In this document: positions 30,409-63,346 of the stretch, in pieces
How positions within the stretch are numbered: the stretch's first letter is position 1
How the letters are laid out: the number at the start of each line of letters is the position of its first letter
Assembly: GCA_040216735.1 (NCBI GenBank)
Contig: JAVJOO010000004.1
Coordinates: forward strand, 121,396 to 185,395
Reading direction: 5' to 3'
Source: Alphaproteobacteria bacterium
GTDB lineage: Bacteria; Pseudomonadota; Alphaproteobacteria; SHVP01
DNA: 64,000 nucleotides
Made by a program: the position numbers and the translations under genes
Notes under the pieces: model-generated
Database searches by the model: none
What the model saw: the letters and a program-made list of their open reading frames with translations, nothing else
What the model was told of the DNA's origin: nothing

Positions 30409-30516
30409 ATGGACACGAAGAAACCCGGCGCGAAACCCGCCGCGTCCGCGAAGCCCGCTGCAAAACCCGGCATTTCCGCGAAACCTGGCGCAAAACCCGG
30501 TTCGGGAAAGAAATAG
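30409..30516 (+). CDS. Candidate 35-aa Lys/Ala/Pro-repeat peptide (MDTKKPGAKPAASAKPAAKPGISAKPGAKPGSGKK)
   Basis: Below the ORF-track size cutoff. GGAGA Shine-Dalgarno 9 nt upstream of the ATG. Divergent from the LysR gene. A terminator-like hairpin plus U-run lies downstream. A competing antisense ORF (30405..30626, PGFA repeats) lacks a Shine-Dalgarno and uses the rare TTT codon. Confidence 0.3.
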   Translation: MDTKKPGAKPAASAKPAAKPGISAKPGAKPGSGKK

Positions 30517-55679: not shown

Positions 55680-55727
55680 CGACGGCCGGTTATTGCTAGG
55701 ATCGTGTCAGAGAACAGGGGAGGAGTC

Positions 55728-56717
55728 ATGTTTCCCATACGTCATTCGGTCGTCGACAACGTCGCGCTGGGCGAAGAGATTCGCCGGCGCTGGGATTTGC
55801 CGGGTCCTTTCCGGTGCGAACTGATCACCCGCGGTATGAACGACGTCTACGTCGTGCACAGTGGGAAGGACCGTTTCGCCGCCCGTGTCTGGCGCGCGGA
55901 CAAGCACACCGCAGACAGCGTAACCTGGGAGCTCGACTATCTGGCCCACCTTAAGAAAAAGGGTGTCCCTGTCATCGCGGCGGTTCCCGACAGCCAGGGC
56001 GCGCTGTCCTTTGGGATCGACGCACCCGAAGGAACCCGCCGCGTTTGCCTGTTCGAATGGGCCGATGGCGATCAGTTCTTTGCCGACCCCAAGCCCGACT
56101 TGGCGCAGAGGGTCGGCGCCACGGTCGCGCGCATGCATGCCGCAGGCGCCGACTTCAAGGGCAAGACCGCCCGCCCGATCGACTTCCCCGGCGAAATCCG
56201 GCGTAAGTTTCCGGCGTTGCTGGCCCGCCTCGACGACCGCCCCGACGACCGGACCTACTACACCAAGGTCGCGGAGGCGCTTCCTGAAAAACTCGAAGCT
56301 GCATACGCCGCCGGAGTTCCCTACGGGCCGATCCACGGTGACATCCACCTCCGGAATGTCTTCGTCACTCCGGGCGATGGTTTCACCATTCTCGATTTCG
56401 ACACCTGCGGCGAGGCGCATTTGATGCACGACTGCATGAGCCCCGCCTGGGCCAACACCTACTTCATGCATAACGGCAACAAGAAGATCACCCCCGAAAC
56501 CACAGCCGCCTATATGCGCGGCTACGAAGAGGTCCGTCCGCTGGAGGACTTCGAGCGCGCCTGCCTACCCCTGTTCATGCTGTCCAAGGAATTCAGCTAC
56601 ATGTGTGGTATGTCCGACGGCGTCAATGTCGTCGGCCACATGTCGTTCGGCCCACACCATTTCGACTGGTTCGCCCAGTCGGTTCGTCGTCACGTCGCCG
56701 AGGCAGGCCTGTTTTAG
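55728..56717 (+). CDS. APH-fold phosphotransferase, paralog 3
   Basis: HGDIHLRNVF and DFDTCGEAHLMHD. GGGAGGAG Shine-Dalgarno before the ATG. The track ORF begins at an upstream GTG. Confidence 0.7.
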   Translation: MFPIRHSVVDNVALGEEIRRRWDLPGPFRCELITRGMNDVYVVHSGKDRFAARVWRADKHTADSVTWELDYLAHLKKKGVPVIAAVPDSQGALSFGIDAPEGTRRVCLFEWADGDQFFADPKPDLAQRVGATVARMHAAGADFKGKTARPIDFPGEIRRKFPALLARLDDRPDDRTYYTKVAEALPEKLEAAYAAGVPYGPIHGDIHLRNVFVTPGDGFTILDFDTCGEAHLMHDCMSPAWANTYFMHNGNKKITPETTAAYMRGYEEVRPLEDFERACLPLFMLSKEFSYMCGMSDGVNVVGHMSFGPHHFDWFAQSVRRHVAEAGLF

Positions 56718-58258
56718 TTCCGTCGGCGGGCGATCGTTTCGGCCGGGTTGCGCAGAAGTATTGCCGCAAGAAGGGCGATAACACCCGCGGCAACGACGAC
56801 CAAAAAGCCGTCGATGATTGCCATGCCGAGCGGCTCTGCAGGCATCCCTATTAGGTTCGCCGGCACCGGGCCGCCCAGCCGCGTCGCCAACGAGTGGGTG
56901 ACGACTGTTCCGACCACGGCAACGCCCATCACTTGGCCGGTCGAGCGGAAGTAGGTGACGTTGGCGGTTGCCGCGCCCATCAGGTGTTTCGGCGCCGAGG
57001 CCTGGGCCAGCAACGTGATCAACGGGAAGGTCGAGCCGATACCGAGACCGGCGATCACCATGCTCGCGATCGCATGGGGGAGCGAGGATTGCGGCGTCAT
57101 CAGGGCCAGCATGATGCCGCCGGTGAGCAGCACCGCGCCGGCAACAAACGCCATCGTCTTGTAATTACCGAAGCGTCCGACGATTAAGCCTGTCAACGTC
57201 GCGCCGCCGATGAAACTGAGCATCATCGGTGTAATGGTCGCGCCAGACGATGTTGCGGACATGCCCAGCACGTTCTGCATGAATAGCGGCATGTAGGTCG
57301 CGATGGCCAACATTGCCGCCCCGGCCGTGAGCGCCAGGATCGCATTGCCGATGTACGCACGATCGTTGAACAACGACAGTGGCAGCAACGGCGTTGCAAC
57401 CCGAGTTTCGACCGCGATGAAGGCGGCAAGCAAGACGATCGCGGCGGCAAACAACCCAATCACTTCGGTTGATCCCCAACCGTATTGAGCCTGGCCGCCC
57501 CACACGAGCCCGAGCAGCAGCGCGACGGTGCCCGCGGTGACCAGAACAGCACCGGCAAAGTCGATCCGCCGATGCAACGGCACACCCTGAACGTTACTGC
57601 TCTTGCCGGGGAGCGACGGCATGAATTTCCACAGAGCAGCGAAGGTGGCGAGGCCGACCGGCACCATCGCGAAGAAGATCCAACGCCAACGTGTCGTCTC
57701 GTCGACAAGGCCGTCGATCAACGGGCCGTTATCGGTGAACCAGCCGCCGACCACCGGGCCGACGATGCTGGCGACGCCGAAGGTCGCCCCGAACATGCCT
57801 TGCCAGCGTCCACGCTCCTTTGGCGTGAACAGGTCTCCCAAGGCGATCATCACCAACGTCATTCCCATGCCGCCGCCGATACCTTGGATCGCACGTGCCA
57901 CGATCAGCACATCCATACTATTGGCGAAGCCGCCAAGAAGCGTTCCCGCCATGAAGACGACCACGCCGCCCAATAGAAAGCGCCGCGCGCCGAATTGATC
58001 CGACAACCGCCCGACGATAGGAACGACTGCAGTCATGCCGAGGAAATAGGCCGTCATCACCCAGGTGAAGCGGTCTAGTCCGTGCAATGAAATGATGATC
58101 TTGGGCAGCGCCGTGGACAATACCGTCTGGAACAACGCCTGCAGCAGCATCGTCGCCATCAATGAGCCCACGATCGACAGTACCGCGAGTTTCGACATGC
58201 TCTGTGCCGGAGACGTTTCGAGATAGGGGATCGTTGTCGTGCGGACGGTTTGGTCCAT
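56714..58258 (-). CDS. MFS transporter, DHA2 (EmrB/QacA) 14-TM drug-efflux family
   Basis: 14 predicted TM segments. Motif A-like GRLSDQFGARRF. About 515 aa from MDQTVRTT. Confidence 0.8.
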   Translation of the reverse strand: MDQTVRTTTIPYLETSPAQSMSKLAVLSIVGSLMATMLLQALFQTVLSTALPKIIISLHGLDRFTWVMTAYFLGMTAVVPIVGRLSDQFGARRFLLGGVVVFMAGTLLGGFANSMDVLIVARAIQGIGGGMGMTLVMIALGDLFTPKERGRWQGMFGATFGVASIVGPVVGGWFTDNGPLIDGLVDETTRWRWIFFAMVPVGLATFAALWKFMPSLPGKSSNVQGVPLHRRIDFAGAVLVTAGTVALLLGLVWGGQAQYGWGSTEVIGLFAAAIVLLAAFIAVETRVATPLLPLSLFNDRAYIGNAILALTAGAAMLAIATYMPLFMQNVLGMSATSSGATITPMMLSFIGGATLTGLIVGRFGNYKTMAFVAGAVLLTGGIMLALMTPQSSLPHAIASMVIAGLGIGSTFPLITLLAQASAPKHLMGAATANVTYFRSTGQVMGVAVVGTVVTHSLATRLGGPVPANLIGMPAEPLGMAIIDGFLVVVAAGVIALLAAILLRNPAETIARRRN

Positions 58259-58266
58259 GGTGTTCC

Positions 58267-58887
58267 TTATTCGACGTTCGGGCGCGGTGCGCACCCGCTG
58301 GTCAGGCCATTGAGAATGAGATCGGTAACGGTGCGGCCGATTCGGTCGGGCGGTGTCGGTGCGTCGGTGAGGGTCGCGCCGCGCAACATGCCGAGAATGA
58401 GGGACGGCAGCAGGTCGGAGTCAGCGTCGCGGTAATCGCCGCGCGCGATACCGTCCTCGATGTTGTGTTTGACGACGGCCAGGAGACGTTCGCGGCGACT
58501 CATCATCAGGCGCCGCGCGTCCTCGTCGATTTCGGCTTTGCGCCGAGTCAGCATGCGTAGAAACGACTTGTGGCGTGTGAGGACGTCGGTCGCGACGCCG
58601 ATCAAGGATACGAGGCGCGCCCGCGGCTCGGCGTCTTGTGCTTCGGCCTGCTCTACGCGCGCGCAAAGTTCGGACATGAATGAATCGAAACAGGCCAGGA
58701 TCAAGGCCTGTTTGGACGGAAAATATCGGTAGAGCGTCGCCTTGCCGACGGCGGCGGCGGCGGCGACCTCGTTCATCTGGACCTGCTCAAGGTCGCCTTC
58801 GCGTAACAGGTCGACCGTAGCGTCGACAATCCGGTCGCGCCGTTCGGTCCGCCAGCGCGGTTCGGCGTCGTAAGAAATAGAACTCAT
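58267..58887 (-). CDS. TetR-family transcriptional regulator
   Basis: N-terminal HTH (MNEVAAAAAVGKATLYRYFPSKQALI). Immediately upstream of, and co-oriented with, the DHA2 pump gene. Confidence 0.8.
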   Translation of the reverse strand: MSSISYDAEPRWRTERRDRIVDATVDLLREGDLEQVQMNEVAAAAAVGKATLYRYFPSKQALILACFDSFMSELCARVEQAEAQDAEPRARLVSLIGVATDVLTRHKSFLRMLTRRKAEIDEDARRLMMSRRERLLAVVKHNIEDGIARGDYRDADSDLLPSLILGMLRGATLTDAPTPPDRIGRTVTDLILNGLTSGCAPRPNVE

Positions 58888-59024
58888 GAGTTCTATTTCT
58901 AGGAAGGCACCCGCTTCGTCAACGGGAAACCGTGCGGACTGCCGGAAACCAGCAGAAACGGCTAAGGTCCGGGCATGGTCGCGGCGCGCGGCCGCTCGTT
59001 TGTTCGTCCCGGAGGGAACCCACC

Positions 59025-59948
59025 ATGCACCGCGGCCTCGTGATTGTCCCGTTTCCCCTCGACGACGAGGGGGTTGCCAACCGCAAACTTCAATTGAAGT
59101 CGGTCAAGCTCGGTCCCGATATCGACTTCGATTTCCGTCCCGTGCTGGCAAGTTGCACCAGCTTCATGAGCGACCACGATTGGTTCTTGATGGATGCCGG
59201 TTGCTTGGAAGCGGGCCTCACCGCCCAGGAAGAAGGCTACGACGCAGTGGTGATCGACGCGACGTCGGACTCCGCGGTCCTCGCACTGCGCAGCGTGCTC
59301 GACATCCCGGTAATCGGTCCGGGCCGCACCGCCATGCTGTATGCATTGATGCTCGGATCGCGCTTCGGCATCTTGGCGATGAACGAAGCCGGGTGCCTCA
59401 ATCACCGGCAGTGGGCCGAGCATCGCAATTTGTCGCAGTACCTCGCTGCGGTCGAACCCATCGGCGGCGGCAAGACCGATGTCGCCAAACTGATGACCGG
59501 CAAGGAAGAAGACATGTTCCCGCTGATGAAGGCGGCCGCCGAGCGCGCCATCGCCAAAGGCGCCGATGTCATCCTGCTTGGTTCGACCACGATGCACCAG
59601 GCCGGTACCTGGTTGAACGAGAACCTGCCGGTGCCGGTCGTCAATCCGGGGCCGCTGACCTACAAGATGGTCGAGACCATGCTAAGCCTTGGCCACACCC
59701 ATTCGCGCACCGCCCATCCCCGGCCCCAGGTCGAGAGGCCCGGGATGATTCACGCTATGCTTCGCGCCGCCGCCGCCTTCGAAAAACGCGAAGCGACCGA
59801 CGGTGCGGCGAGCGCCCCGAAAAAGAAGATCGCTGCCAAGACAACGAAGAAAAAGACGAAGGCAGCCAAGGGGAAGCCCGCGGCGGTCAAGAGTCGCGCC
59901 CGGTCCGGTGGGGCCAAGCCCAAGAAAGCGGCGCGCCGCACCAAGTAA
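59025..59948 (+). CDS. Asp/Glu/hydantoin-racemase-family protein with a 50-aa lysine-rich histone-H1-like C-terminal tail
   Basis: Core LVIVPFPLDDEG...VIDATSDSAVLALRSVLDIPVIGPG...ILLGSTTM fits the PF01177-like fold. Tail PKKKIAAKTTKKKTKAAKGKPAAVKSRARSGGAKPKKAARRTK. Start at M32 of the track ORF. Confidence 0.55.
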   Translation: MHRGLVIVPFPLDDEGVANRKLQLKSVKLGPDIDFDFRPVLASCTSFMSDHDWFLMDAGCLEAGLTAQEEGYDAVVIDATSDSAVLALRSVLDIPVIGPGRTAMLYALMLGSRFGILAMNEAGCLNHRQWAEHRNLSQYLAAVEPIGGGKTDVAKLMTGKEEDMFPLMKAAAERAIAKGADVILLGSTTMHQAGTWLNENLPVPVVNPGPLTYKMVETMLSLGHTHSRTAHPRPQVERPGMIHAMLRAAAAFEKREATDGAASAPKKKIAAKTTKKKTKAAKGKPAAVKSRARSGGAKPKKAARRTK

Positions 59949-60646
59949 TGATCCGGCGCGAGCAAAACCACGCGGCAGCGGGCGTTATGCCCGGTAGGCC
60001 GCTGCGGCTTGCGTCAATCGCTGTCGGCCTCGTCCTGTTGGGTCTCGCATTGACGGACCCTGCCGCTGCCCAAGGGCAAAGCGCCCAAACCGTCCAGCGC
60101 GCCGCCGTCCACCAAACGCCCGGCGGCGCGATTGTCGACGGCGTTCCAGGGGGGCGGTCAGTGCAGGTGCTGTCGCGTCAGGGCGCGTGGGCGGAGATCG
60201 CTTACGACAAGGGCGGGATCGCGTTGAAGGGGTGGGTTGAACTCGCGCGCCTCCACCTCGGTGCGGGTGCGGCGGCGCTGCCGCAGCACAAACCTGAGCC
60301 CACGCTGCCCAAGGGTTCCTACGTGACGATCATGACCACCAACTTGGACTGCAAGGAGAAGGCGTTCGGTGACGGTTTTGAATCGTGCGCCGTCCATGTT
60401 CAGGCCACGGTGTCGCTGGATGCGGTGCCGCCCGCACGTCCGACGGTGCGGCTGTCCTGCGGCGCGGAAATTACCACCCATAGCCAGTTCTCGCCTTACA
60501 GCAAGGTGCGCGAAATGACGAGCAAGACGTTCCCACTCAATCGTGTTTTTTCCTTGCATCAGATGACCATCGATTTTCGCTTCCCAGGGCCGGTCACCTC
60601 GGTCGACGGCGAAGAAGTCCGTTGTCTTTTGCAACCCCTGACATAG
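59948..60646 (+). CDS. Secreted protein with a bacterial SH3-like domain and a 4-Cys C-terminal domain
   Basis: Signal peptide (RPLRLASIAVGLVLLGLALTDPAAAQG). SH3_3-like GGRSVQVLSRQGAWAEIAYDKGGIALKGWV. ATG overlaps the TAA stop of the upstream gene (TAATG). The long 586-aa track ORF upstream of this is an artefact. Confidence 0.5.
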   Translation: MIRREQNHAAAGVMPGRPLRLASIAVGLVLLGLALTDPAAAQGQSAQTVQRAAVHQTPGGAIVDGVPGGRSVQVLSRQGAWAEIAYDKGGIALKGWVELARLHLGAGAAALPQHKPEPTLPKGSYVTIMTTNLDCKEKAFGDGFESCAVHVQATVSLDAVPPARPTVRLSCGAEITTHSQFSPYSKVREMTSKTFPLNRVFSLHQMTIDFRFPGPVTSVDGEEVRCLLQPLT

Positions 60647-60659
60647 AAATTAGGCGCCG

Positions 60660-61826
60660 ATGGACTTCACGCTGAGCGACGAACAAAGGGCGATCCAGGA
60701 CGCGGTCGGCAGGATCTGCGCCGGCTTCGATGAAACCTATTGGCTAACGCGCGACCGCGAGGGTGGCTTTCCCGCCGACTTCGCGAAGGCCATGGCCGAC
60801 GACGGGTGGCTCGGCATCGCCATGCCCCAGGCCTACGGCGGGGCCGGGCTCGGCATTACCGAGGCTGCGCTCATGATGCAGACCGTCGCGGGCGGCCCCG
60901 GCGCGTTCGGGGCGGCCTCGTCGATCCACCTGAACATCTTCGGCCTCAACCCGGTTGCGGTCTTCGGCACGGCGGAACAGTGCGCGCGCATGATGCCGCC
61001 CATCATTGGCGGCGAGCATCGCGCCTGTTTCGGCGTGACCGAACCCGACGCGGGCCTCGATACCGGCAGCATTAAAACCAAAGCGGTCCGTAATGGTGAT
61101 ATCTACATCGTGCAGGGCCGCAAGGTCTGGACCTCGACCGCGCAAGAAGCCGATCACATTCTGCTCCTAGCCCGCACTAGTCCGCGCACCGAGGGGGCGC
61201 GCGGTACCGACGGCCTCTCGTTGTTCTATACCGCGCTGGACCGCGACTACGTGACGGTGCGCGAAATCGACAAGATGGGCCGCAAAGCCGTCGATTCGAA
61301 CGAGGTGTTTATCGACGGATTGCCGGTACCGGCCGCGGACCTGATCGGGAAGGAGGGCGACGGGTTCCGCTACCTGCTGCACGGCCTCAACCCCGAACGC
61401 ATCTTAGTGGCCGCCGAGGCCATCGGGATCGGTCGGTATGCCATTCAGCGGGCCGCCAAGTATGCCGGCGAACGGGTCGTATTCGGTCGCCCGATCGGAC
61501 AGAACCAAGCCATCCAACATCCGCTGGCCGAAAGCTGGGCCGAACTCGAGGCCGCCGACCTTCTCATGCTCAAGGCCGCCCAACTCTACGACGCCGGTAA
61601 ACCCTGCGGCGCCGAAGCCAATGCGGCCAAGTACCTTGCCGCCGAGGTCGCCTACCGCGCCTGCGAGCGCGCGGTTCTCTCCCATGGCGGCTATGGTTAT
61701 GCGAAGGAATTCGTCGTCGAGCGCCTCCTGCGGGAAGTGATGATCGCGCGCATCGCGCCGGTGAGCCAACAGCTCATCCTGTGCTACATCGCCGAACGGG
61801 TGCTCGGCCTGCCCAAAAGCTACTGA
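60660..61826 (+). CDS. Acyl-CoA dehydrogenase
   Basis: ACAD N-terminal, middle and C-terminal domains. Catalytic-base region (YAKEFVVERLLREVMIARI) and FAD-binding patterns. Confidence 0.85.
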   Translation: MDFTLSDEQRAIQDAVGRICAGFDETYWLTRDREGGFPADFAKAMADDGWLGIAMPQAYGGAGLGITEAALMMQTVAGGPGAFGAASSIHLNIFGLNPVAVFGTAEQCARMMPPIIGGEHRACFGVTEPDAGLDTGSIKTKAVRNGDIYIVQGRKVWTSTAQEADHILLLARTSPRTEGARGTDGLSLFYTALDRDYVTVREIDKMGRKAVDSNEVFIDGLPVPAADLIGKEGDGFRYLLHGLNPERILVAAEAIGIGRYAIQRAAKYAGERVVFGRPIGQNQAIQHPLAESWAELEAADLLMLKAAQLYDAGKPCGAEANAAKYLAAEVAYRACERAVLSHGGYGYAKEFVVERLLREVMIARIAPVSQQLILCYIAERVLGLPKSY

Positions 61827-62593: not shown

Positions 62594-63346
62594 ATGGGCG
62601 ATGGACTGGCGTGGCGGATGAAGTTTGGGGTGGTGACGCCCTCGACCAATACGATCGTGCAACCGGAATACGACGATTTGCGCCCGCTCGGCGTGACCAA
62701 CCACGTCGGGCGAATGCATATCCCGGACGATCCGGTGACGAACGACGCGGACTTTGAAGAACTCATCCGCCGGATCGATGTCGCGCTGGAAGAAGCCGTC
62801 GACCGCGTCATGACCTGTAAACCCGACCATATGATCCTGGGGATCTCGGCTGAAAGTATCTGGGGCGGCGGTCTCGAAGCGGCGGAATTGGTCAAGGCGC
62901 GGATGAGCAAGCGCTCCGGCGGTCTCGGCGTCACCCTTGCGGCCGATGCCTTGCCGGCGGCACTCAAGGCCCACGGCGTGGCCGGTAAGGTGGGGTTGCT
63001 CACGCCCTATATGCCGACCGCCGAACAGCACATCCAAAAATTCATGGACGATATCGGCTATGCGGTCAGTGGCATGGTGCATCTGGAGTGCGGCGGGCCG
63101 GTCGTCATCGCCCACACGCCGCGCAGCGCGTTGCGTGATGGGCTGCAGGCCCTGGTCGACGGCGGGGCAGATGCCATCGTTCAATTCGGCGCCAATCTGC
63201 CCATGGGCAAATTTGCCGCCGTTGCCGAACAATGGTTCGACCGACCGGTTATTTGTGTCAATGTCGCCACCTACTGGCACGCGCTACGATCCAACGGCAT
63301 TACCGACCGTGTGGGTGGCTATGGCGCGTTGATGGAACGGTACTGA
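62594..63346 (+). CDS. Asp/Glu/hydantoin-racemase-family enzyme (maleate cis-trans isomerase / arylmalonate decarboxylase-like)
   Basis: FGVVTPSTNTIVQPEYDD resembles the maleate isomerase N-terminus. Two Cys-containing active-site-like regions (LECGGP, ICVNVAT). Confidence 0.6.
   Translation: MGDGLAWRMKFGVVTPSTNTIVQPEYDDLRPLGVTNHVGRMHIPDDPVTNDADFEELIRRIDVALEEAVDRVMTCKPDHMILGISAESIWGGGLEAAELVKARMSKRSGGLGVTLAADALPAALKAHGVAGKVGLLTPYMPTAEQHIQKFMDDIGYAVSGMVHLECGGPVVIAHTPRSALRDGLQALVDGGADAIVQFGANLPMGKFAAVAEQWFDRPVICVNVATYWHALRSNGITDRVGGYGALMERY

Follow-up and report, generated by a model that had tools for sequence, protein, structure and literature searches.

A lysine-rich, histone H1-like tail on a racemase-superfamily enzyme of an uncultured alphaproteobacterial clade

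We analysed a 64,000-nt stretch of DNA from an Alphaproteobacteria bacterium (GenBank assembly GCA_040216735.1, contig JAVJOO010000004.1, positions 121,396 to 185,395 of the forward strand; hereafter the window), in which an initial annotation had noted a racemase-family enzyme with a polylysine tail and a translational overlap with the next gene. The gene in question encodes a 307-aa protein of the Asp/Glu/hydantoin racemase superfamily, the folded core of which is followed, within the same open reading frame (ORF), by 45 disordered and strongly basic residues. Among the homologues listed, such long tails occur in one narrow clade of uncultured Alphaproteobacteria, and similar tails are found on at least two other enzyme families of the same metagenome-assembled genomes (MAGs). 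The tail may act as an electrostatic tether that holds the enzyme on DNA, RNA or polyphosphate (polyP). Lysine-rich, H1-like tails of bacterial proteins are already known; new are their occurrence on a small-molecule enzyme and on three enzyme families in a single uncultured clade, and the cysteine-less core that carries the tail.

The racemase-like core and its disordered tail

The racemase-like gene (59025..59948, forward strand, stop codon included) encodes a protein that begins with MHRGLVIVPFPL, and a GGAGGG motif is located approximately 9 nt 5' of the ATG. The protein matches the Pfam family Asp_Glu_race (PF01177) over residues 52-212 (E=1.2e-23; 84.4 bits against a threshold of 31 bits), and a word-indexed search detected 2951 family members. 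In an AlphaFold2 (AF2) model built from a 114-sequence alignment, the predicted local distance difference test score (pLDDT) exceeded 90 over most of residues 1-255 and the predicted template modelling (TM) score was 0.79. The folded core comprises residues 1-262 (59025..59810), delimited by AF2, Foldseek and HMMER alignments, and its last helix (239-262) leads straight into the tail. It consists of two pseudo-symmetric alpha/beta domains, as in solved members of the superfamily. The top Foldseek matches were allantoin, hydantoin, Asp and Glu racemases and arylmalonate decarboxylase; the best was allantoin racemase 3qvj/3qvk (TM score 0.84 on the target, 24% identity, E=1e-17), and allantoin racemase 5lg5 and the Pyrococcus hydantoin racemase 2eq5 were the other closest solved structures.

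In HMMER alignments, the catalytic residues Cys79 and Cys184 of 3qvj correspond to Ala79 and Ser187 of the racemase-like protein, and the alignment with 2eq5 gave the same result. Position 79 is A, S or T throughout the family, Ser187 is nearly invariant and lies inside an LGSTTMHQ motif, and no invariant Cys was found across 114 family members. Both catalytic cysteines are replaced and therefore the protein is not a two-thiol allantoin or hydantoin racemase, despite the database names of its relatives ('allantoin racemase' in JGI; 'HupH'). We conclude from these alignments that the core is a member of a large uncharacterised cysteine-less subfamily of the superfamily, and that the 2951 detected homologues are routinely given one of these two names without having the catalytic cysteines.

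Elsewhere, the usual form of this subfamily is a tandem pair of adjacent paralogues, 45-53% identical to the query (L018-L091; for example L024 5083-5988 and 6001-6765; L and P numbers denote retrieved loci and homologous proteins). Fused doubles of 490-512 aa with two copies per polypeptide also occur (P0030, P0034, P0039, P0132, P0133, P0137). The tandem and fused paralogues suggest a hetero-oligomeric enzyme. Unlike these paired relatives, the tailed gene is single.

The tail, SAPKKKIAAKTTKKKTKAAKGKPAAVKSRARSGGAKPKKAARRTK, comprises residues 263-307 (59811..59945, forward strand). The string quoted in the initial annotation was exact; its length is 45 residues by AF2 and not about 50. The AF2 model gave a pLDDT of 46-57 and no secondary structure for these residues, so that the core is predicted to be folded and the tail disordered. 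The tail contains K15, A11, T4, R4, S3, P3 and G3 (K 33%, A 24%, P 7%), no D or E, and carries a net charge of +19; the core has a net charge of -7 and 3.8% K. At the core K frequency, the probability of finding at least 15 K in 45 residues is 6e-11. The ratio of K to R is 15:4 in the tail, whereas R exceeds K in the core, in a genome of 62% GC. This preference of Lys over Arg despite a GC-driven Arg bias argues for selection on lysine specifically. Tail and core are alike in their GC content at third codon positions (GC3; 0.82 and 0.80, respectively). A six-frame scan of the window returned only one K-rich segment of this kind, which was the tail itself.

We found the tailed ORF uninterrupted in eleven other loci (L001, L004/L014, L007, L010, L012, L013, L015, L017, L092, L094), which had been assembled from different samples and MAGs. 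Differences in tail length were multiples of 3 and so in frame. The Pfam match and the continuity of the ORF in these loci confirm a racemase-family enzyme with a real tail of its own. Using the Nei-Gojobori method, the ratio of nonsynonymous to synonymous substitution rates (dN/dS) was 0.01-0.11 for the core, and for the tail 0.07-0.22 in close pairs and up to ~0.7 in distant pairs. The tail values are 5-10 times those of the core and remain below 1. We conclude from these ratios that the tail is under relaxed but real purifying selection, with composition kept more than sequence.

Distribution of the tail and the overlapping SH3-like gene

Every orthologue with at least 88% core identity keeps a tail of similar length and composition. 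The proteins P0001-P0010 and P0012 (89-100% core identity) end in K/A/T/P/R tails of 40-55 aa with divergent sequences. The tail is absent from P0011 and P0013-P0016 (75-82% identity), and P0017-P0028 (61-71% identity) have basic tails of 10-25 aa or basic N-terminal extensions. More distant family members stop right after the last helix, and nearly all of the 2951 detected family members are without a tail. We kept 80 loci from a representative scan that took a single genome for each GTDB species; the long tail was present in five (L012-L015, L017) and absent from 75. The five tailed representatives are all labelled as uncultured Alphaproteobacteria or Proteobacteria MAGs, and the sources of the long-tailed orthologues are all uncultured Alphaproteobacteria MAGs or metagenome contigs. 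The lineage specificity proposed in the initial annotation is thus borne out: among the homologues listed, the long tail is a property of a narrow clade and not of orthologues in general, and no source names it. By this comparison, the tail is a recent acquisition or expansion within one narrow clade. Past the stop codon of the tail-less P0013 (L005) we found no tail remnant; the genome of P0013 is AT-rich and distant.

Between sub-clades, tail identity falls to 27-49%, compared with 88-95% for the core. Tails of sub-clade A end in PKKAARR[T/A]K(K) and those of sub-clade B in KKA[V/I]RKKA[K/R]RR. Tandem Repeats Finder detected no DNA tandem repeats in the window or in L015, no periodic motif was visible by eye, and no Rfam element was found in the tail region. 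A profile of 14 tails searched against 5.8 billion proteins yielded zero matches at E≤1e-3, a result that the low complexity of the tail makes uninformative. The initial annotation had considered a domain fusion, for which we obtained no evidence: the tail has neither a detectable homologue nor DNA repeats.

We repeated the scan for K-rich segments over ~1 Mb of DNA of the retrieved loci. A second racemase-like paralogue with a similar tail was found in L024 (5083-5988), L025 and L023. This paralogue shares ~45% identity with the query core and occupies the upstream position in a tandem pair; among its orthologues from other taxa, the tail is intermediate in L022 and missing in L028. An Amidohydro_2 enzyme has a similar tail in L084, L018, L019 and L034, whereas in the Rhodospirillaceae orthologues of this enzyme (L037, L058) the basic tail is short, at ~12 residues. 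Several of the tailed loci come from shared MAGs (L017 with L024 and L084; L012 with L018; L015 with L025; L094 with L023). Tailed MAGs are JAYQJC01, JAYONB01, CALJDF01, CAYGKG01, JAYOEZ01 and JAQBYN01. When applied to the loci from other taxa, the scan returned approximately five K-rich segments, none of them on a racemase-like gene. To judge from these sequences, it looks like a habit of the clade, in which three enzyme families lengthened a basic C-terminus. Other enzymes are tailed as well, so the driver would act on the lineage rather than on this gene.

Some further observations concern individual homologues. A 92-aa ORF with the K-rich C-terminus PPKAKKSAKKARPTKPKR lies near a short-tailed racemase-like gene in L016 (11350-11427, forward strand), a K_Offshore alphaproteobacterial MAG. 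Long N-terminal extensions are present in P0024, P0027 and P0057 (~64% identity). One of these three is labelled as eukaryotic (EukProt Tamp_15438), which could reflect transfer to a eukaryote or contamination; two of the three are known as ENA metagenome proteins only.

In the window, the stop codon of the tailed gene overlaps the start codon of the next gene in the form TAATG (59946..59950, forward strand), as first described: the TAA at 59946-59948 gives its last A to the ATG at 59948. The ORF that follows (59948..60646, forward strand) encodes a predicted exported SH3-like protein of 232 aa. Residues ~1-41 form a putative signal peptide, with an R-rich n-region, the hydrophobic stretch LASIAVGLVLLGLAL and the site AAA/QGQ, which we read by eye as Sec. 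These features are kept in type across the orthologues (AAA/QGQ, AVA/QEQ), and the n-region is unusually long (~20 aa). The AF2 model (mean pLDDT 68) shows a helix at 17-34 and is all-beta thereafter, with an SH3-like beta domain at approximately residues 44-98 and a beta-sandwich containing four Cys at approximately residues 126-230. The initial annotation had described a bacterial SH3 domain and a C-terminal module with four cysteines. The latter stood, since C135, C147, C171 and C226 are invariant in all orthologues. The SH3 assignment is weak: the SH3_3 match over residues 54-98 (E=8.8e-5) scored 23.1 bits and is below the 27-bit threshold, and 2 of 4 orthologues matched SH3_3 at E<0.01. 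Foldseek returned local matches to the bacterial SH3 domains 4krt_B and 2krs with probability 1.0 and E~0.03, using a model with a pLDDT of 68. The four-Cys beta-sandwich gave no significant match in the fold search. The mature part of the protein has a dN/dS of 0.11-0.19, so the SH3-like gene is real.

Homologues of the SH3-like protein formed only three clusters among 5.8 billion proteins. Every copy is located directly 3' of a tailed racemase-like gene with an overlap of 1 or 4 nt, in the form TAATG (window, L007, L010, L094) or ATGA (L092, L013). L010 has no counterpart of the second, internal Met of the window protein, which makes the overlapping ATG the conserved start. We conclude from the overlaps that the SH3-like gene is probably translationally coupled to the tailed gene. 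A 586-aa ORF (58886-60646, forward strand) that extends across both genes, in frame with the SH3-like gene, was rejected as not real, being the -1 frame, poor in stops, of a gene whose GC3 is 0.80.

The SH3-like gene is present in sub-clade A and absent from sub-clade B. In the tailed loci without it (L001, L004/L014, L012, L015, L017), the gene for acyl-CoA dehydrogenase (ACAD) begins 3-15 nt past the stop codon. A 228-aa protein encoded downstream of the ACAD gene in L001 was considered as a displaced SH3-like gene and rejected, being unrelated at 19% identity. Sub-clade B is tailed without having the SH3-like gene, and therefore the tail and the coupling to the SH3-like gene are independent. 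These five loci give no support to the idea that coupling to an exported protein is the reason for the tail. Judged by its distribution, the SH3-like gene is a separate, later, lineage-restricted insertion into the operon that is unlinked to the function of the tail. The coupling should not be taken as a functional tie to the tail, and taken alone it would be an ordinary operon insertion.

Proposed role of the tail

We hypothesize that in one small uncultured alphaproteobacterial clade a soluble cytoplasmic enzyme gained a disordered, K/A-rich C-terminal tail of 40-55 residues. This tail would tether the enzyme by non-specific electrostatic attraction to a polyanion, which could be the nucleoid or other DNA, RNA or ribosomes, or polyP granules, and would thus localise or concentrate it. 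Racemases of this fold are oligomers. The enzyme is probably an oligomer as well, in which case each particle would present several tails and binding would be multivalent. We infer polyanion binding and localisation from the appearance of the tail, because a segment that is acid-free, dominated by lysine and poor in hydrophobic residues, although the GC-rich genome otherwise favours Arg, has the look of polyanion-binding tails. By this analogy, an electrostatic tether to DNA, RNA or polyP is the role that we favour, and we consider its chances of being correct to be evenly balanced.

Several points weigh against this proposal. The tail diverges fast, and a conserved motif is confined to its last 7-10 residues, which in sub-clade A overlap the region where translation of the next gene begins. 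The published lysine-rich bacterial tails that we found belong to proteins acting on nucleic acids or granules and not to small-molecule enzymes. The view that tails are lineage-wide comes from a biased sample, as the loci had been picked for their racemase-like genes; the special feature may belong to the gene clusters and not to the lineage. The window holds just one such tail in 64 kb, and contigs could have been misassigned by MAG binning.

Alternatively, the tail may be a functionless, near-neutral low-complexity extension that arose after the stop codon had moved downstream, a disordered appendage cheap enough to persist. The rapid turnover between sub-clades fits this explanation, as do the variable length (40-55 aa), the several indels, the lack of a conserved internal motif, and the failure of the tail profile to match anything significant. 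A near-neutral extension is, however, difficult to reconcile with a dN/dS below 1 in close pairs and with the similar length and composition of the tail in every orthologue at least 88% identical. Its lysine-rich, acid-free composition opposes the GC-driven bias for Arg over Lys of the same protein, similar tails occur on two other enzyme families of the same MAGs, and DNA tandem repeats that would suggest slippage are absent. We regard a near-neutral origin as doubtful, though a serious competitor of the tether.

The tail might also serve a protein-protein or regulatory role, such as docking to the neighbouring APH-family kinase or to ACAD, control of oligomerisation or solubility, or lysine modification. 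The APH, racemase-like and ACAD genes form a tight operon with gaps of at most ~35 nt. Elsewhere the family occurs as tandem pairs or fused doubles, so subunit interactions matter, and the tailed protein of L023-L025 is encoded by the upstream gene of such a pair. The metabolic enzyme CrtA of Cereibacter sphaeroides associates with other proteins through a C-terminal extension that it does not need for catalysis (PMC13488962). On the other hand, the tail is featureless and polycationic in composition, in the way of polyanion binders rather than of specific docking motifs. We saw no partner with an acidic segment to match it, and the tail also occurs on an unrelated amidohydrolase. Such a role therefore appears unlikely to us.

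In some alphaproteobacterial systems, positively charged C-termini act as secretion signals. The tail could accordingly be read as an export or sorting signal, for example for type IV secretion, that links the enzyme to the SH3-like protein, and the next gene does encode a predicted exported protein that is probably translationally coupled. Yet five tailed lineages are without the SH3-like gene, secretion-system genes are absent from the neighbourhood, the core has an ordinary cytoplasmic enzyme fold, and the other tailed proteins are catabolic enzymes as well, making export very improbable. An assembly or frameshift artefact, or a separate histone H1-like gene wrongly joined to the racemase-like gene, which the initial annotation had named as its own possible undoing, is refuted by the comparative data: the ORF and its in-frame indels recur in the eleven further loci, helix 239-262 runs directly into the tail, an internal start codon or ribosome-binding site for a separate tail gene is absent, and the G AAA AAG heptamer at 59818-59824 is not conserved in L010. 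This heptamer and the low-complexity, A-rich DNA had been the reasons for considering an artefact, and nothing that we found speaks in favour of one.

An extension of the electrostatic tether is that polylysine tails serve the clade as an address label for certain catabolic enzymes, a defined set that would be recruited to a polyanionic scaffold. The set would consist of the cysteine-less racemase-like proteins and the associated amidohydrolase, each gene cluster contributing one tailed protein, and the scaffold would be a polyP granule, the nucleoid or an RNA condensate. We put forward both the label and this composition of the set as speculation with a low probability of being right. If true, the address label would represent a charge-driven compartmentalisation of enzymes that has not been described previously for bacterial small-molecule metabolism. 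The repeated occurrence of tails on ordinary catabolic enzymes within one clade points to simple charge tags as a possible means of localising or concentrating metabolic enzymes, and pairs of tailed and tail-less orthologues exist for comparison.

Gene neighbourhood and comparison with known systems

The racemase-like gene and its neighbours have a conserved order: DUF952, APH kinase, racemase-like gene, ACAD, (cupin) and an Amdase-like gene. The APH-family phosphotransferase gene (55704..56717, forward strand; Pfam APH, E=1e-24) is the conserved upstream partner, located directly 5' of the racemase-like gene in tailed loci with enough upstream DNA. The conserved downstream partner is the ACAD gene (60660..61826, forward strand), with Pfam matches to the ACAD N, M and C domains. 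MFS transporter and TetR regulator genes (56714..58887, reverse strand), identified by Pfam and synteny comparison, lie between the APH and racemase-like genes only in the lineages of the window and L007 (L007 3429-5602) and of L092 (1777-3953). Neither L010 and L013 nor any member of sub-clade B has this block. With DUF952, an APH kinase, ACAD, a cupin, an Amdase-like gene and an amidase as neighbours, the gene is not in a context of purine, allantoin or hydantoin utilisation. We also checked an analogy to LvaA/LvaC or ACAD10/11 (4-hydroxyacyl-CoA kinase/lyase) by PDB matches and did not adopt it: the window ACAD matched generic short- and medium-chain ACADs best, none of its top 60 matches was an ACAD10/11 entry, and the best matches of the window APH protein were aminoglycoside, amicoumacin and homoserine kinases.

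A second gene of the Asp/Glu racemase superfamily, Amdase/EutA-like by weak matches, is located 2.6 kb downstream (62594-63346, forward strand) and keeps this place in every related locus. Between tetR and the tailed gene there is a perfect 28-nt palindrome (58873-58900; AGAAATAGAACTCA/TGAGTTCTATTTCT), centred on the start codon of the reverse-strand TetR gene. Its 24-nt core is kept in L092, with diverged flanks, and the palindrome is likely a TetR operator. Elsewhere in the window, a 35-aa ORF (30409-30516, forward strand), MDTKKPGAKPAASAKPAAKPGISAKPGAKPGSGKK, lies between a LysR gene and a threonine-dehydratase-like gene, with GGAG ~11 nt upstream. Its AKP(A/G) repeats recall the KPAA repeats of AlgP, and an exact-match look-up of its product found no gene on record.

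The racemase-like core has the same two-domain fold (PF01177) as the allantoin racemases of Klebsiella (HpxA, 3QVJ/3QVK) and Pseudomonas (AllR, 5LG5) and the hydantoin racemase PH1054 (2EQ5). Compared with these enzymes, to which it is 20-24% identical, the tailed enzyme lacks both catalytic Cys, adds the C-terminal helix 239-262 and the 45-aa tail, and is encoded beside an APH kinase and an ACAD rather than among genes of purine or hydantoin catabolism. The SH3-like protein shows a possible resemblance to SH3_3/SH3b proteins through its weak SH3_3 match and its local structural matches to the SH3b domains of a phage endolysin and CPF_0587, and NCBI names one of its orthologues 'SH3 domain-containing protein'. 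It differs from the known proteins of this kind by its sub-threshold score, the absence of a catalytic domain, and a four-Cys beta-sandwich without a detectable relative.

For the tail, AlgP and PhaF of Pseudomonas provide one parallel. Their K/P/A-rich C-terminal domains bind DNA and position polyP or polyhydroxyalkanoate granules (PMC9239181). Like these domains, the tail is disordered, K/A/P-rich, acid-free and H1-like in composition. However, AlgP and PhaF are structural or regulatory proteins with 150-200 aa of tandem KPAA repeats, whereas the tail has 45 aa, repeat-free DNA and 3 P in 45 residues, and is carried by a small-molecule enzyme. Another parallel is mycobacterial Ku, whose lysine-repeat tails modulate its DNA binding (PMC3553676), and the tail shares with the PAKKA or lysine-repeat tails of actinobacterial Ku, HupB and topoisomerase I that it is lineage-specific, of low complexity, lysine-rich and C-terminal. 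In contrast to these DNA-acting proteins, its carrier is a metabolic enzyme, and PAKKA-type periodicity is absent.

Two alphaproteobacterial enzymes offer further parallels. Ppk1 of Caulobacter crescentus requires a positively charged C-terminal tail of 22 aa for its localisation to polyP granules; this tail is missing from the E. coli orthologue, and all known catalytic residues lie outside it (PMC3806658). The racemase-like protein is likewise an alphaproteobacterial enzyme with a basic C-terminal tail. Unlike Ppk1, which makes the polyanion that it binds, it has no evident link to polyP, and its tail is twice as long. The Cereibacter CrtA extension is also a clade-restricted, disordered extension of variable length on an alphaproteobacterial metabolic enzyme, in that case restricted to a genus. 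It acts at the membrane, rich in proline, glutamate and lysine and of mixed charge, whereas the tail of the racemase-like protein is purely cationic.

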